Assembly: GCF_006345805.1 (NCBI RefSeq)
Contig: NC_043004.1
Coordinates: 89,900,001 to 89,964,000, forward strand
Length of the DNA: 64,000 nucleotides
Origin: Octopus sinensis
Taxonomy: Eukaryota
Direction of reading: 5' to 3'
Shown piece after piece: positions 4,957 to 55,610 of the stretch. The notes under the pieces were generated by a model, which worked only from the letters and a program-made list of their open reading frames with translations, had not been told where the DNA came from and ran no database searches. The first letter of the stretch is position 1, and each line of letters opens with the position of its first letter. The position numbers and the translations under genes are program-made.

Positions 4957-5280
4957 CGACTGGCCTCCGTGCCGGTGGCACGTAACAAACACCATCCGAT
5001 CGTGGCTGTTGCCAGCCTCACCTGGCCTCCGTGCCGGTGGCACGTAAAAAGCACCCTCCGAGCGTGGCCGTTCGCCAGCCTCGTCTGGCGCTTGTGTCGG
5101 TGGCACGTAAAAAGCACCCACTACACTCACGGAGTGGTTGGCGTTAGTAAGGGCATCCAGCTGTAGAAACACTGCCAGATCTGACTGGCCTGGTGCAGCC
5201 TTCGGGCTTCCTAGACCCCGGTCGAACCTTCCAACCCATGCTAGCATGGAAAGCAGACGTTAAACGATGATGATGATGAC
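4957..5280 (+). repeat. Family C dispersed repeat (RTE-LINE 3'UTR-derived, internal about 60-nt tandem units, (GAT)n tail)
   Basis: Repeated gtgccggtggcacgtaaaaagcacc units ending ccaacccatgctagcatggaaagc..acgttaaacgatgatgat; the same sequence follows an RTE ORF2 end at 45720-46250. Confidence 0.85.
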
Positions 5281-26092: not shown

Positions 26093-26698
26093 TGTTTATG
26101 AAAAGAACAATGTTCATGAGAGGGACATATTCCTTGGAGAGGGACATATCTGTGCTATATGAATGGCAGTTTGATTATATAGTACTGAAGAATAATCAAG
26201 CCAATCTCAATAATTAGCAATGCTTGTTAAGTAATATATAATTGATTACAACACCAAGTGCACTGTAAAATCTAAGTAGTGTTTCACCCATACCATTTCC
26301 CAAATATTCCTTTGACTATTGTAATAATACGATTGTTATGATACGTATGGTTTCCTAAAATCTAGTTTTTAATATCAGTGTATTTGTGTTCACTATAGAT
26401 TGAGTCTTGAAACAAAATATGCTTATCCAAATTTTGCAATTGTCTTGCAAGTCATTATATATATATATATATATATATATAACTAATGTAGGATAAAATC
26501 TTTTTCAGGAAAAAAATTTTATCAATGGCCAGCATATCAAAAAATACCTTTAAAGGTTAAATTTATAAATAATTTACAAAATTAGGGCAAAATAAAAATT
26601 CTAATGCCAATTATGCCAAAAAAAGACAAAATTGTCAATAACCATTATAATTTATGCGTCTCAAAACAAACCGACAAAAATTTTTTTTAAATCTGTTA

Positions 26699-26759
26699 TT
26701 ACCGTATTGGTCCCAATTTCGGGGTTAATTCATAAGAATTTTCCCCTCTTCAGCGATAA
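26699..26759 (-). ncRNA. Type I hammerhead ribozyme (family H1)
   Basis: Minus strand: TTATCG-CTGAAGA-GGGG(aaaattcttatgaattaa)CCCC-GAAA-TTGG(ga)CCAA-TA/CGGTAA. Confidence 0.85.
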
Positions 26760-27178
26760 ATATGTGAGATATAAGTTAAATACTTACTCATACCCATGGA
26801 AAAAGCAAGTACTAAGTCCTGAGCAGACCTAAGTACCCCAAATATATCCAAAATAGAAAGTCTTCGGCACATCTCGAGAAACGTGTGATTTGAACTAGAA
26901 ACTTTCACAGAGTGAGAGAATCCGGAAGTGAACACTATTCAATTTATAAATAATGTAGGATAAAATTTTTTTGGGGAAAAAAATTTTATCAATGGCCAGC
27001 ATATCAAAGAATACGTTTATAAATAATCTGTGAAAGTTTCTAGTTCAAATCACACGTGTCCCAAGATGTGCCAAAGATTTTCTATTTTGGATATATTTGG
27101 GGTAATTAGGTCTGCTCAGGACTTAGTACTTGCTTTTTCCATGGGTATGAGTAAGTATTTCACTTATATCTCACGTAT

Positions 27179-27239
27179 TTATCGCTGAAGAGGGGAAAAT
27201 TCTTATGAATTAACCCCGAAATTGGGACCAATACGGTAA
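27179..27239 (+). ncRNA. Type I hammerhead ribozyme (family H1)
   Basis: Stem I TTATCG/CGGTAA, CTGAAGA 27185-27191, stem II GGGG/CCCC, GAAA 27218-27221, stem III TTGG/CCAA, AUA site with predicted cut after 27233. Confidence 0.87.
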
Positions 27240-27367
27240 TAACGGATCTTTTAGAAATTTCTATCGGTTTGCTTTGAGATGCATAAATTATAATGGTTAT
27301 TGACAATTTTGTCTTTTTTTTCAGCATATTTGGCATTAGAATTTTTATTTTGCTCTAATTTTGTAAG

Positions 27368-27404
<37 letters not shown>

Positions 27405-27449: not shown

Positions 27450-27817
27450 ACCAGTGCCAGTGGCACATAAGAGAACCATCTGAACATGGCCGTAGCCAGC
27501 ACCGCATCGACTGGCCTCCGTGCTGGTGGCACGTAACAAACACCATCCGATCATGGCCGTTGCCAGCCTTGCTTGGCCTCCATGCTGGTGGCACGTAAAA
27601 AGCACCATCTGAGCGTGGCCATTCACCAGCCTCGTCTGGCACCTGTGTCAGTGGCACATAAAAAGCACCCACTACACTCACGGAGTGGTTGGCATTAGGA
27701 AGGGCATCCAGCTGTAGAAACACTGCCAGATCTGACTGGCCTGGTGCAGCCTTCGGGCTTCCCAGACCCAAGTTGAACCGTCCAACCCATGGAAAGCGGA
27801 TATTAAACGATGATGAT
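27450..27817 (+). repeat. Family C repeat
   Basis: Tandem gtg(c/t)cggtggcacgtaa units and (GAT)n tail. Confidence 0.85.
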
Positions 27818-29361: not shown

Positions 29362-29969
29362 CTATAAACAAATGATTCGTTGGTTATTAAGGATTTTTTT
29401 TCCTTAATACTAAAATAATGTTCAAATTTTGTTCAGATTCCTTGAGGCACAAGTCTGAATTACACTATTTTTTACATATTATAAGTGAAGGACAGATATA
29501 GCTGAAATAGGAAGTAATTTTGCATTGTCACATTTTCTCTTTCCAAAAGTAATTAGCAAACAAATAAATAGATAAAAGCAATGAATAGCAGTTGACTGTT
29601 AGGATTTTATTAGTTTGGTTATGTGTTAGTATAAGGCAACATAAGTATGCAGGAGGAAACTGGGATATTGATGCTGATGCTTTCTGAGGACATCAGTGAA
29701 ACAAATTAGCTCCTTGCACTATAGCACTCACTATTGCTATTTATAGGCCAGCAATGGTGCCATTTTAATACAGTTATAAATACTTTCAGTATATTTAGTT
29801 TCATTAATAAAGGAATAAGCCATTATTTTTTTGGTCAATCTTCTCAATGACAATATTACAAATTTAACCCTATTAAGTCAACTGATTTCATGACACAGAG
29901 TTTTTTTAAATAATTAAATCATTATGATTTAATTTTAAAAGACCATGCTTTTAAGGATCATTTCTTAAG

Positions 29970-30230
29970 TATGTGTCACAACGGTATCCGATTCCTTTGA
30001 TCGGTCAACAACATCACGATGATGCGAGATTGTATTGAGTCCTGAGCGTGAAGCAGGATCTCCTGTATCGTTCGTTACTCTGCCTTCAACGAACGTGAGG
30101 AATCCATTGAAGATCGTTCTTGAGAGGTTTAATAACTTCTTAAAGAGGGACTCGATACTTTCTGAGTGATTATAAGAAATGGCGGTGCCCCAGCATGGCC
30201 ACAGCTTGTGAGCTGAAACTAGATAAAAAT
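29970..30230 (+). mobile_element. Probable LINE 3' end sharing its tail with SINE B
   Basis: Unique body followed by ggcggtgccccagcatggccacagct-tgtg-agctgaaactaga; the same tail occurs at 48197-48240 (-). Confidence 0.5.
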
Positions 30231-34726: not shown

Positions 34727-36671
34727 GCATTCCCAGATTACACACGCAAATTCACAGGTAAAATATATATTTTAAAAAAAATAAATAAATAAATAAATTC
34801 ATGAATGGATGTTGTCTTCACAGCGATAATTCTCTTCTCAGTACATGAGTCATTCCAGTAAACACGATTTTTTGCACTTCCTGTAGGGCTGGTAAGCCTG
34901 GTATCATTTTCAAATAGGTTTCAGTACCTTTTTTTATCATTCCTAGAGCTCCTACAATCACTGGTACTGTAGTCGCCTTGAGATGCCACATTTTTTCAAT
35001 TTCTATTAGCAAGTCTTTATATTTACTGATTGTGTCAAATTCTTTCGCCGCTATATTGTGATCGCAAGGAATACTCATGTCAATTAATAAACACATCTTT
35101 TTTGTCTGATCTTTTATAATAATATCCAGTTTATTAGCTTTTATAGTCTTGTCGGTGTGTACGGGGAAGTCCCATAGAATCGACACATTTTCTCCCTCAG
35201 TCACAGCTTCAGGATGGTGTTTATACCATTTGTCGGCAGTTTTGATTTTATAATGCTGACATATTGTCCAGTGTAAATACTGGCCAACTCTGTCATGTCT
35301 TGCTTTATATTCTACAGTTGCTAAAACTCTACACCCTGAGATTAGGTGGTCTGTAGTTTCAATCTCATCGTTATAGAATCAGTATTTTGGGTCAGCTCCA
35401 TTTTTTATCACATTGGCTTGGTAGTTCCGGGTTAATAAGCTTTGGTCATGAGCAGCTAATATGAAACCTTCACTCTCTGCTTTTAGCCCTGAGCTTCGTA
35501 ACCATTGGTGCGTGTGTTTCTGGTCGACATCAGCTTGTTTGCTACGGGCCACATACTTGCCATGGAGAGGTTTCTGTTCCCATCTGCTAGCTAAATTTTC
35601 ATGTGCTTTTGTCTTTGCAATTAATTTTATTTTCTTTGCAGCTGCAGTTGGCGCATTTCCTTCAGCCTGATCAACCAGGTGGGTATCTAAGAGATCAGCC
35701 GCGAATTTTTTGCTCTCTTTGAGAATGGAGTGAAGTTTTATCGGTCTTTCATGTTTTCAACAAGTTTTAGCATCCAATCGTTGGTTGCTTCAAGGTATTT
35801 GGCCAATCCGATTGAGGTGGTTCTGTATGTAAGTTCAAGCTGGATCAAACCTCGACCTCCCTGAGCTCTGGGAAGGTAAAGGCGATCCACGTCTGCCTTT
35901 GGATGGTGCATCTTATTAGAAGTCAGTAGCTTGCGGATTTTTCTGTCAATTTTCATTATTTCACTGGTATTCCAGTTAAGCATATTGAAGCTATAAAGAA
36001 CAACTGGGACTGCTAAGGAATTTATGGCTAACACCTTATTATATGCATTCAGTTCAGACTTCAGGATTGCTTGAACTCTTCTATAACATTCCTTCCTAAC
36101 CTTCTCTTTCATGTTTGCATGCTGGATACCAGAGCCTTCATTTATTCCTAGGTATTTATAGGTTTGTTCCTGCTCAAGCTCCTGTATTATTGTTTCGGCA
36201 TCTAATTCGATTGAACTAGACTTTACCGATTCCCCTTTCTTAAAAGTGGCTTTGTCACACTTTTCAAGGCCAAAATCCATCCCGATAACATCACTGAATC
36301 CTTTCACAGTATGTAGTAGTCCTTCAAGCTCTTCATCATCTTTGCCATATAGTTTTAAATCATCCATAAAAAATAGATGGCTTATTTCCCTGTTGTCAAT
36401 TCTGTAGCCATATCCTGTTCTATTCAGTTCCCTTGAGAGTGGTATTAGTGCTATGCAGAAAATTAGTGGTGAAAGTGAGTCACCTTGGAAAATTCCACAT
36501 TTTATGCTAATGTTATTTGAGCGCAATACTCCATTAGAATGATATAATTGGAGCTTCGTGTTCCATAGTGACATATTATACTTTAAAAAATCTGTAGTCA
36601 CAGGAGAAATTTTGAAAATGTCCAGCAATTTCAGAATCCACGAATGTGGTATGCTGTCAAGGGCTTTTTTT
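34726..36671 (-). mobile_element. 5'-truncated RLE-type LINE (R4/Dong-like): RT, decayed CCHC, restriction-like endonuclease
   Basis: RT motifs KKALDSIPH, GIFQGDSLSP, HLFFMDDLKLY, YKYLG, RLYLPRAQGGRGL; ETTDHLISGC knuckle; endonuclease ILWDFPVHTD...KLDIIIKD...LLIDMSIP...KYKDL...VPVIVGALG. Confidence 0.9.
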
Positions 36672-36937
<266 letters not shown>

Positions 36938-37048
36938 GGCGAGCTGGCAGAATTGTTAGTATGCCAGGTGAAATGCTTAGCAGTATTTCATCTCATTCTC
37001 TCCCCCAAAACAGCTGCCCTTGTGGAAAAATTTGAAACTATGATGATG

Positions 37049-40524: not shown

Positions 40525-40829
40525 GGCCTCCGTACCGGTAGCACGTAAAAAACACCATCCGATCGTGGCCGTTGCCAGCCTCGCCTGGCCCCCGTGCTGG
40601 TGGCATGTAAAAAGTACCATCTGACCATGGCCGTTTGCCAGCCCCATCTGGCACCTGTGCCGGTGGCACGTAAAAAGCACCCACTACACTCACGGAGTGG
40701 TTGGCATTAGGAAAGGCATCCAGCCGTAGAAACATTGCCAGATCAGACTGGGCCTGGTGCAGCCTTCTGGTTTCCCAGACCCCAGTTGGACCGTCCAACC
40801 CATGCTAGCATGGAAAGCGGACGCTAAAC

Positions 40830-46250: not shown

Positions 46251-46357
46251 TTATATAATATATATGTATATATATATAATATATATTATATATAATATAT
46301 ATATATATATATAATATATATTATATATAAGATAAATATTATGTATAATATATATAC

Positions 46358-46419
<62 letters not shown>

Positions 46420-46422
<3 letters not shown>

Positions 46423-46861
46423 CATAAAGTGCCTCAAATGGGCTGGAGTATTTCTATTTTGGATGTATTTGGGGTACTTAGTTGTGCTCATGACTTAGTA
46501 TTTGCTTCTTCAATGGGTATGAGTAAGTATCTCATTTATTTCTTTTGCCACATGTATCACTGACGAAGAGAGGGCTCTTAGTAGCTAACTCTGAAATTGG
46601 TCCGATATGGTAATAATGGAATTTTTTAGAAATTTCTGTCGACCTTTTTTCGAGTAGCATGCGTATTGTGAAAAAATTATATGGTTAATGGACAATATGT
46701 CCAATTTTTCGGCATATTTGGCATTAGAATTTTTTTCTTTTGCCCTCATTTATGAATTGTTTATAAATTTAACCGTTAAAGGTATTTTTTAATATGCTGG
46801 CCATTGATAAAATTTTTTTCGAGAAAATATTTTTTTTCGAAAAGAATTTTATCCTCACATT

Positions 46862-46863
<2 letters not shown>
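46420..46863 (+). mobile_element. Diverged copy of hammerhead element family H1 inside (AT)n
   Basis: tttctattttggatgtatttggggta...atgggtatgagtaagtat...atatgctggccattgataaaattttt homologous to 26484-27367. Confidence 0.85.
46555..46612 (+). ncRNA. Type I hammerhead ribozyme (H1 variant)
   Basis: TATCA-CTGACGA-AGAG(...)CTCT-GAAA-TTGG(t)CCGA-TA/TGGTA; predicted cut after 46607. Confidence 0.8.
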
Positions 46864-46901
<38 letters not shown>

Positions 46902-47002
46902 ATATATATATATATGTATATGATATATATATGTATAATGTATATTACATATAATATATATAATATATATCTATTATATATATATACATATATATATATA
47001 TA

Positions 47003-52947: not shown

Positions 52948-54037
52948 TGAGCTGGCAGAAACGTTAGCACGCCGGGCGAAATGCGTAGTCGTATTTCGTC
53001 TGTCGTTACTTTGTGAGTTCAAATTCCGCCAAGGTCGACTTTGCCTTTCCTCCTTTTGGGGTCGATAAATTAAGTACCAGTTATGCACTGGGGTTGAGGT
53101 AATCGACTAAATACCTATGTCTGTCCTTGTTTGTCCCCTACGTATGTCAGTTGATACCATCTCTGGCAAGGGCTTTGAAATAAAACCAAGAAGAAGTTCC
53201 AGACACCCAGCTGAGTACTTGACAGACACTGACTTTGCTGACGACATCGCTCTTATCAGTGATTCTCTCTCCAATGCCCAGTCTCTTTTACAATCTCTTG
53301 AACAAGCCTCAAATTGTGTATGTCTTTACCTCAATGAGACCAAAACTGAATACATAAACAAGTGCCTGTCCAACAGTGATTGCATCATCCACACTCTCAA
53401 CAGTGCACCTTTAAATATGGTTTCTGATTATAAATATCTTGGGTCATACATATCATCATCTGGAAAAGACTTTCTAACTAGAAAGGGTATGGCCTGGTCA
53501 GCCTGTAATGACATGCATAAGATCTGGTCATCAAATCTAAGTAGAGACTTCAAACTTGAAATATTCAAAGCCACAGTCGAACCAATCCTACTATATGGCT
53601 CAGAAACCTGGACGTTATCAAAGAAGCTTGAGAGGCGGTTGGATGGAACCTACACTCGCCTCCTTATGAGAGCTCAAAATCTCTCGTGGAGGCGCCATCC
53701 AACTAAAATGCAAATATATGGGAAATTACCACCTGTGTCATCTCTTGTGAAAGGTAGGAGAGTCCAGTTTGCTGGACATTGTTGTAGAGCTGAAAAAGAA
53801 GTAATTTCTACTCTTCTCCTCTGGAAGCCATCTACTCGCAACACCAGAGGGCACACACTCTCCTACCCTGATGTAATCTCCAGGGATACAGGCATCCAGC
53901 AACAGGACCTCCGTAATGCTATGATGAACCGTGAAGTCTGGCGCAACATGGTAAATTCCATTGTCTCGACCACGGTCGAACAATGATGATGATGATTGTC
54001 CCCTCTATGTTTAGCCCTTTGTGAGTAATAAAGAAAT
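52948..54037 (+). mobile_element. SINE A split by a LINE insertion
   Basis: SINE body 52948-53139 resumes at 53996. Confidence 0.88.
53140..53995 (+). mobile_element. Young 5'-truncated RTE-group LINE with open ORF2 frame
   Basis: LTDTDFADDIALIS, YKYLGSYI, ILLYGSETWTL, FAGHC; no stops over about 280 codons; stop merges into a (TGA)n tail; TSD ttgtcccct at 53131-53139 and 53996-54004. Confidence 0.92.
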
Positions 54038-54174: not shown

Positions 54175-55610
54175 TCATGACATCTCACTCCTTTCAATTG
54201 CTGAAAAAATCCTCTCAAGAATGATTTTAACTTGAACAAATTTTAAATAGAATAAATAGAACAAATTGCTGAACATTGTGTATCCTGTAAGTAGTGTGAT
54301 TTCAGGGCTGGCTGTGGAATAGCAGATATGATATTTAGCTGGCAGCAGGTGCAGGAAACGGTTCACAAATATGAAAAAGATTTCTCTGTAGTACTTGTTG
54401 ATCTCTCGAAAGCCTTTGACATAGTGTGTCAATAAGCATTATAATAATAATAATGAAATTATTGTATACAGTGCTCAGGTGCACCACAACTTGTCAGAAA
54501 GTGCATATATAAAGTACATGCAGTAATGTAGAAATGTCTGGAAAGTGAACATGCTTGTGTGTGTATCAAGTGTAGTGTTGGCGAATCTCAGGAAGCATGG
54601 AAGTTTTGAAGGATGCAGTGCTCCGACAACTAACAACCGATGCCGGCAGTTTGTTCCACGCTTCAGCAACTCTCAGCGTGAAAAAATGTTTCCTGAAGTC
54701 ATGGGAGCTGTGCTGTTTTCTGACTTTGTAAATATGTCCACGGGTGTTAGATGGGTGGAGTTTGAAGAGGTGCTCAGAGTTATTGTTTGTGCGATGGTTG
54801 ATAATTTTATGGGTGTCTGCCAAGTCAGCTGCCAGACGTCGGAGTTTCAATGTGTCCATGCCCAGGGAAGTAAGGCGTTCAGGATATGGCAAATGCCTGA
54901 TGGAGGGTATTCTTTTGGTTGCACGTCGCTGAACAGCTTCCAGACGATTGATGTCCTGGGCAAGATAGGGGTTCCAGACCGGTGATGCAAATTCCAGGTG
55001 AGGTCTTACCATAGCTATATAAAGCCGCAGATAGATAGCCGGAGAGCGGCTCACAAAGGATTTGGTGAGTGATGCCAAGACACCCTCAGCCTTCTTGACA
55101 ATTTTAGCGATGTGTTTTGTCCAACGCAAATCACTGTTGACAATAACACCCAGGTCACGTTCACTTGAAGACTTTTTGAGACTAGTGTTGTGGAGGGAGT
55201 AGGTGGACGCTGGGTTTCTCCTCCCAAAATGCATGGTGGTACATTTGTCCACAGCCAGCTTGAGTTGCCAGTCCATGATCCACTGCTGCATTGTGTCCAG
55301 GTCTGGAAAGTCTTATCTATACAAAAGTTGAATGTGATTATGGTATTGCATAGGGATATGAAACCCTTTGCTGTCTCAAATGGGGATCAACCACAGCAAT
55401 TTGAAGTGAGAAATTGTACAAAACTAGGATGCATGTTGTTGTTCACAAAGATTTTCAAACAGAAGAACAGAGATAAACGTTTTCTTCAAACTTTCATTTC
55501 ATATTCCCCAAAATATTCAGACAGTGGATATTTCTAAAGAAAACCAGGCTCAGTTTACCAGCTGATGATCAGAAATAAGTAGCTCTGAACATTGGAGTCT
55601 TCCACTTATA
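54175..55610 (+). pseudogene. Old RTE RT fossil split by a CR1 insertion
   Basis: ISLLSIAEKILSRMIL..FRAGCGIADMIF..VDLSKAFD (54175-54430) continues as LHRDMK...FEVRNCTKLGCML (55320-55450). Confidence 0.7.
54436..55310 (-). mobile_element. 5'-truncated CR1-clade LINE
   Basis: 241-aa open frame WQLKLAVDKC...ERDLGV...VRPHLEFASPVWNPY...WNKLP; 3' tail gtgcacctgagcactgtata plus (TTA)n. Confidence 0.92.

Follow-up and report, generated by a model that had tools for sequence, protein, structure and literature searches.

Positions 46429-46874 of the 64-kb window (the whole 64,000-nucleotide stretch of Octopus sinensis DNA analysed here) represent a dispersed, 5′-truncated copy of a 503-nucleotide, protein-free repeat, a likely non-LTR retrozyme that carries a covarying type I hammerhead. 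The features of this copy, and of the second locus with which it was compared, are collected in Table 1. The copy itself is solitary, and the unit length was taken from tandem arrays, in which units measure 503 nt with a 475-nt variant. Contig C434 holds four direct units of 475-503 nt each, plus inverted ones, and further arrays are found elsewhere. The unit is non-coding, with a GC content of 33% and a longest ATG frame of 54 aa. When 2.72 Gb of genome was scanned, a tight motif pattern gave 2,190 matches versus 54 for the reversed control, and an exact 19-mer from the 3′ half of the unit gave 2,936. The repeat is present in more than 2,000 intact-core copies genome-wide. No paper on the 503-nt family was found in the literature; the supplements of PMC7229834 and bioRxiv 10.64898/2026.07.22.740005 may include it.

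Table 1. Features of the window and of the hammerhead-bearing copies (window coordinates).
Feature	Position	Strand	Basis or remark
5′-truncated repeat copy	46429-46874	+	unit positions 57-502 of 503 nt; 95.7% identity to tandem-array unit
(TA)n tract, 5′ side of this copy	46252-46421	.	
(TA)n tract, 3′ end of this copy	46864-47002	.	
Possible 10-nt inverted partner	46419-46428		reverse complement of 46749-46758, read from sequence; chance possible
Type I hammerhead motif	46555-46612	+	sequence pattern
Stem I with predicted bulged extension	46549-46618	+	extension derived from the same sequences
Stem I extension pairs	46549:46618, 46550:46617, 46552:46614, 46553:46613		predicted
Core CUGANGA	46560-46566	+	N7 = C here (A, G or U in other subfamilies)
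Extended stem II	46567-46592	+	4 bp, 46567-46570/46589-46592
Stem II, distal part	46573-46576/46583-46586 (4-bp distal helix)		with 2x2 purine internal loop and 6-nt loop
GAAA, stem III and AUA triplet	46593-46607	+	stem III 46596-46599/46603-46606, 3-nt loop
Private C to T change at CpG	46598	+	creates U·G pair; sister-copy comparison
Predicted cut	between 46607 and 46608	+	hammerhead consensus in available text of PMC4209133; NUH rule
Comparison copy, other subfamily	27027-27365	+	hammerhead 27180-27238; ends in (TA)n 27369-27402
Inverted partner of comparison copy	26482-27019	-	more than one unit; hammerhead 26700-26758; ends in (TA)n 26456-26481
U3 snoRNA	29939-30170		Rfam, 125 bits; only Rfam match in window
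Arrays of 62-63 nt unit, another dispersed repeat	4960-5119, 27460-27640, 40530-40681		
Open frames resembling LINE-type reverse transcriptase fragments	53111-53983 (+), 35741-36955 (-), 54569-55312 (-)		by eye

The window contains three hammerhead motifs, starting at 46555 and 27180 on the forward strand and at 26700 on the reverse strand. The complete core (CUGANGA...GAAA...UH) is found in the 46555 copy, in 12 of the 13 subfamily majority sequences and in 75 of the 90 flank-anchored copies. Three helices surround it, with helix I open, on which pair counts and branch-wise nulls agree, and double changes occur in each helix. The cut site is placed by the hammerhead consensus and the NUH rule. 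Stem II has a conserved purine internal loop and stem I a bulge, and the two may touch. Mussel retrozyme hammerheads are described as being without canonical loop contacts in the available text of PMC7229834. Rfam returned no hammerhead at the gathering score in the 64-kb window, nor at E values up to 10 within 46400-46800; this is a test of the library and not a mechanistic feature. A GTAAGT at 46523-46528, 32 nt 5′ of the core, resembles a splice donor and is retained in most subfamilies, and no spliced joint from it is present in the contigs covering the unit.

The sequence-only reading had compared the 46555 copy with that at 27180 and proposed that their differences compensate one another within the stems. 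These differences are present in the sequence. The closing pair of stem I is changed (TATCA/TGGTA at 46555-46559/46608-46612 versus TATCG/CGGTA at 27180-27184/27234-27238), stem II reads AGAG/CTCT in the 46555 copy versus GGGG/CCCC in the 27180 copy, the variable core base differs (CTGACGA versus CTGAAGA), and the core bases said to be untouched are indeed identical at 11 positions. Further compensations had been overlooked, in distal stem II (46573-46576/46583-46586) and at the stem I extension pair 46550:46617, where G-C becomes A-U. Between these two subfamilies alone, 8 stem changes leave all 12 motif-defined pairs intact, an outcome reached in 1.8% of 200,000 random placements. Stem III had been said to keep its pairing through G-U. 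The pair U46598·G46604 does exist in the 46555 copy but does not characterise its subfamily: among the 49 best-matching sister copies, 2 have T at 46598, which lies in a CpG context. Because the other 47 carry C, the G·U is a private change of the 46555 copy. In all, this copy has 5 differences from the majority sequence of its subfamily, and 3 of these are T in place of C. The actual stem III change between the subfamilies is from U-A to C-G, a full compensation. A CpG change in one genomic copy can mimic a G·U "compensation", and caution is needed on this point.

Copies for a larger alignment were picked by their flanks only, which avoids a choice based on the core; this gave 785 matches, with places taken from the first 100 listed. 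With one chimera and four near-duplicate tandem copies set aside, the alignment consisted of 88 flank-selected copies and the 2 window copies. Over 22 pairs and 90 copies, 95.1% of 1,907 cells are paired, compared with 88.5% when shuffled and 24-43% with slid partners. A tree built without the ribozyme columns still sorts the copies by ribozyme type (bootstrap not fully settled). Thirteen subfamilies, defined as clusters of at least 4 copies and holding 254 of 281 copies, were then represented by their majority sequences; the old ones among them share 65-70% identity with the unit. On the subfamily tree, 39 changes are located in the stems (0.93 per site) and 21 at unpaired ribozyme sites (1.05 per site), whereas the 11 core sites have 1 (0.09 per site). 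Individual copies may themselves be constrained: core differences occur at 3 of 819 non-CpG cells in the best-scoring copies versus 523 of 22,385 in their flanks, but at 12 of 986 cells in the flank-anchored copies.

The stem changes were compared with a null in which the same changes were re-placed branch-wise at random among the stem columns. Across 22 pairs and 13 subfamilies, 7 of 286 pair cells are broken (null 70.8 ± 11.1, minimum 23 in 5,000 runs), and 12 of the 22 pairs have a double change (null 3.9 ± 1.5, maximum 9 in 5,000 runs). With only the 12 pairs given by motif geometry, 4 cells are broken versus 41.5 ± 11.9, and with the old subfamilies also removed, none is broken versus 17.0 ± 4.7; in both cases 0 of 5,000 runs came as low. 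The double-change count in the young subfamilies alone is weaker (96 of 5,000 random runs). Random placement falls far short of the pairing that the stem changes preserve, and the selection on RNA structure that the sequence-only reading had suggested for the source elements is therefore upheld on the larger alignment. It should be noted that such covariation speaks of a selected fold, not of cleavage, and is silent on the activity of the 46555 copy. Whole subfamilies have G·U at the first pair of stem II or at the third pair of stem III, and all 13 have G-C at the second pair of stem II (46568:46591).

At the level of single pairs, the same expectation of covariation is borne out only marginally. 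Our per-pair test was an R-scape-like script of our own with a tree-aware null, not R-scape itself. With 87 sequences, 46569:46590 alone among the 22 pairs passes; with 166 sequences, including the old subfamilies, two of 22 pass, at E 0.004 for the fifth pair of stem I and at E 0.05 for 46569:46590, and nothing passes among all 3,655 column pairs. RNAalifold recovered only 4 pairs from the alignment, all in distal stem II. Single pairs are weak because most of them changed once.

Energy prediction gives a different picture of the RNA. The hammerhead fold is predicted at -3.8 kcal/mol in the 46555 copy and -5.9 kcal/mol in a sister copy, versus minimum-energy folds of -14.7 and -17.5 kcal/mol, respectively. 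It is the lowest-energy fold in none of the four copies folded, and stem III pair probabilities are 0.00-0.10 in all four. A single-sequence fold does not stand out from shuffles (z = 0.26). We take the failure of folding programs to give the hammerhead as uninformative on cleavage and not as a refutation. Folded as a circle, the whole unit reaches -122.7 kcal/mol versus -96.8 ± 4.8 kcal/mol, none of 40 shuffles being as stable, and the monomer is 65% paired by prediction. The predicted circle fold also has a hairpin at 46465-46505, 5′ of the ribozyme, which appears to vary between subfamilies with its pairs retained.

The ends of the copies follow a regular pattern. A (TA)n tract follows 55 of 97 segment ends, another unit follows 19, and the remaining 23 border on other sequence; 51 of the 55 (TA)n ends fall in two zones of the unit, 390-399 and 490-503, each beside a TATAAA. 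Ends within (TA)n tracts would conceal any target-site duplication, which in non-LTR retrozymes, where there is one, exceeds 4 bp. The locus at 26482-27365 is an inverted pair with (TA)n at either end. Rare variants are shared at 0.58 per 100 nt within one place versus 0.04 between places, about 15 times more often, as one template per insertion would lead one to expect. Partial tandems, inverted 5′-truncated partners and (TA)n targets are all found in the repeat, and the same three features are described for Penelope-like elements, in particular those of the Neptune and Hydra clades, in the available text of PMC8557442. The 5′ ends show no enrichment at the predicted cut, with 22 genome-wide matches, about 16 of them true junctions, versus a rough expectation of 9-16, and the test is no proof of cleavage. 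Copies run through the predicted cut site. Taken with the missing pile-up of 5′ ends, this makes a re-ligated circle or an uncut multimer the likely template.

Penelope-like elements are present in the same genome. In a GIY-YIG search, 150 places were scored out of 14,154 candidates, and 50 loci were compared with the unit; among these 50, shared sequence was confined to the locus from which the query came and to two short AT-rich hits. One locus (L145) has an intact 781-codon frame with reverse transcriptase and GIY-YIG, in an element that ends in (TA)n. This Neptune-type element (L145:59-2401; G000:C1:207475531) has a linker between the two domains and, by eye, a hammerhead-like motif with a U3-A8 core variant in its 3′ UTR. 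It is flanked by two 99% identical stretches of 1.15 kb, each with one copy of the 503-nt repeat. Elements like those of the Hydra clade are also found, with RWK and CxCX5C motifs and a hammerhead-like motif of their own ahead of the (TA)n end. In L240-L259, the 3′ UTR of such elements exceeds 1 kb and contains a hammerhead-like motif whose stem II is long; the 3′ end takes either of two alternative positions, both leading into (TA)n. Penelope expansions in coleoids have been reported, ribozymes being unmentioned in the available text of PMC8967140. A Penelope-type enzyme likely copies the repeat.

It could be argued that the repeat is the pLTR of an autonomous Penelope-like element, that its copies are the 5′-truncated remains of that element and that the hammerhead serves it. 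The shared insertion anatomy (PMC8557442) would agree with this, as would the resemblance of Xenopus retrozymes to pLTRs (bioRxiv 10.64898/2026.07.22.740005) and the Penelope-type protein similarity in 5 of 60 four-kb flanks of the repeat. Two of these five flanks were read in sequence, and in both the coding element is an insertion separate from the unit. The L145 element terminates about 400 nt before the unit, in a (TA)n tract of its own, and was rejected as part of the repeat; the L122 element lies about 2 kb off. A fragment near L063 was also rejected, being a neighbour only. A reverse transcriptase and GIY-YIG frame between terminal repeats would place coding sequence ahead of the unit start, and this is seen in 0 of 30 loci (28 places) chosen by their unit start, where the preceding sequence is the end of a previous unit in 27 and an inverted partner in 3. 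Given also the dissimilarity of the unit to the GIY-YIG loci compared, we consider the pLTR explanation improbable. Equally improbable, in our view, is that the fold has been selected while cleavage is weak, dimer-dependent or no longer under selection, the RNA serving perhaps in recognition by the reverse transcriptase or in RNA stability. This would accommodate the alternative predicted folds, which bury the core or the cut site, the lack of a 5′-end pile-up at the predicted cut, and the first stem II pair, which in the old subfamilies, three in number, is A·A and elsewhere may be A-U or G·U. Penelope-type hammerheads are moreover described as poor at cleavage in vitro (PMC4209133), and 8 of 9 Xenopus elements were uncleaved (bioRxiv 10.64898/2026.07.22.740005). 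What speaks against it is that conservation is highest at the unpaired catalytic positions, whereas all four bases occur at N7, which is known to be free, and that position 17 has A or U but no G across all 13 subfamilies. A conserved core, a free N7 and A or U at position 17 are the pattern of the catalytic rules.

The covariation itself might be thought a two-lineage artefact, in which many one-branch changes landed on paired columns by chance. Indeed, most double changes sit on one or two branches and fail the per-pair test, and the stem extensions were derived from the same sequences. Random placement nevertheless never matches the observed pairing, with all pairs or with 12, and with or without the old subfamilies. 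The subfamily tree also requires four two-sided changes at 46569:46590, which flips between A-U and G-C, and this pair comes first among 3,003 column pairs. We therefore regard such an artefact as very improbable and largely refuted.

A retrozyme cycle would bring these results together as follows. Tandem copies would be transcribed, the ribozyme would cut the transcripts to unit length, and ligation of the ends would give circles. The enzyme of a Penelope-like element, acting as helper, would then reverse-transcribe the RNA, priming at a nicked (TA)n site. Selection would act on the templates, and inserted copies would drift, as in the CpG change at 46598. A working fold would be required of templates that found new subfamilies, which would explain why compensatory change is seen between subfamilies. 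The pairs survived dozens of sequence changes, so that cutting of their own RNA was likely a condition for the source copies to spread. Contigs cover the unit in three sequencing runs guessed to be RNA and in one likely DNA run, and none of the runs containing the unit is on record as RNA; contigs show neither ends nor circles, and we give these runs no weight as evidence. Over 46563-46711, one variant contig with a depth of about 230, which differs from the 46555 copy, dominates two presumed-RNA runs from two studies, possibly a sign of strong expression from one locus.

In coral, mussel and axolotl, non-LTR retrozymes have been described that combine a type I hammerhead with low GC content and circular RNA (PMC7229834), and a link between retrozymes and Penelope has been argued in vertebrates (bioRxiv 10.64898/2026.07.22.740005). 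The octopus repeat shares several traits with metazoan non-LTR retrozymes as described there: every unit contains a type I hammerhead, copies occur both singly and in tandem, GC is low, a coding frame is lacking, the predicted circle is strongly self-paired, copies run into the thousands, and Penelope-like elements are present in the same genome. Unlike them, it has a unit of 503 nt versus 170-400 (PMC7229834), a length within the range of 51-972 given in bioRxiv 10.64898/2026.07.22.740005. Its stem II is lengthened by an internal loop and a distal helix where others have a short loop 2, and its stem III has 4 bp. Circles are described for metazoan retrozymes; for the octopus repeat, circle and cleavage are predicted. 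No cephalopod family appears in the available text of the two papers, and the main text of PMC7229834 does not mention octopus. Compared with the hammerheads of Penelope pLTRs in the available text of PMC4209133, the repeat has a full, not a minimal, stem III and no RT-GIY-YIG frame, and unlike the Neptune- and Hydra-clade elements of PMC8557442, it encodes no protein and has no sequence in common with the elements sampled in the genome. In vitro, 1 of 9 predicted Xenopus retrozymes was cleaved (bioRxiv 10.64898/2026.07.22.740005). A general hammerhead consensus is available (PMC3088659), and covarying hammerhead families inside one genome have been noted (PMC4209133). Thus, the repeat is a new family in a known class, with a covariation that is real and well supported. 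It would not surprise a specialist, because hammerhead retrozymes and within-genome covarying families are already published. Its value is as material: it parts selected change, between subfamilies, from drift, within copies, and keeps natural G·U intermediates. Its clean insertion ends bear on which enzyme and which form of RNA spread retrozymes.

More tentatively, the extended stem II and bulged stem I might define a distinct tertiary-contact subtype of the type I hammerhead, and the ladder of subfamilies might be a fossil record of the compensatory path of the RNA, with G·U intermediates fit enough to spread; we hold this possible but doubtful. Stem II has an internal loop in the 503-nt family, in its old subfamilies and in no fewer than three further repeat families. 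Natural series run through A-U, G·U and G-C at the first pair of stem II, and through C-G, U·G and U-A at the third pair of stem III. If the ladder is such a record, each compensatory step could be assayed from natural copies.

Other hammerhead repeats were also encountered in the genome, where a loose hammerhead pattern gave 3,744 matches versus 130 for the control. A second hammerhead family (L181:5905-6275; G000:C1:48952082), with 237 candidates, is about 60% like the 503-nt repeat over 188 nt; its stem II starts from a U·U at the base and follows the same internal-loop design, and its stem III is palindromic. Two more families with an internal loop in stem II of their hammerheads are found at L290-L300 (G000:C1, e.g., 1345936 and 1854733), one of them tandem with a period of 485 nt. 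Another hammerhead repeat, at L222 and L131, combines a short stem II with a unit length of roughly 430 nt, and its unit ends in (TA)n.
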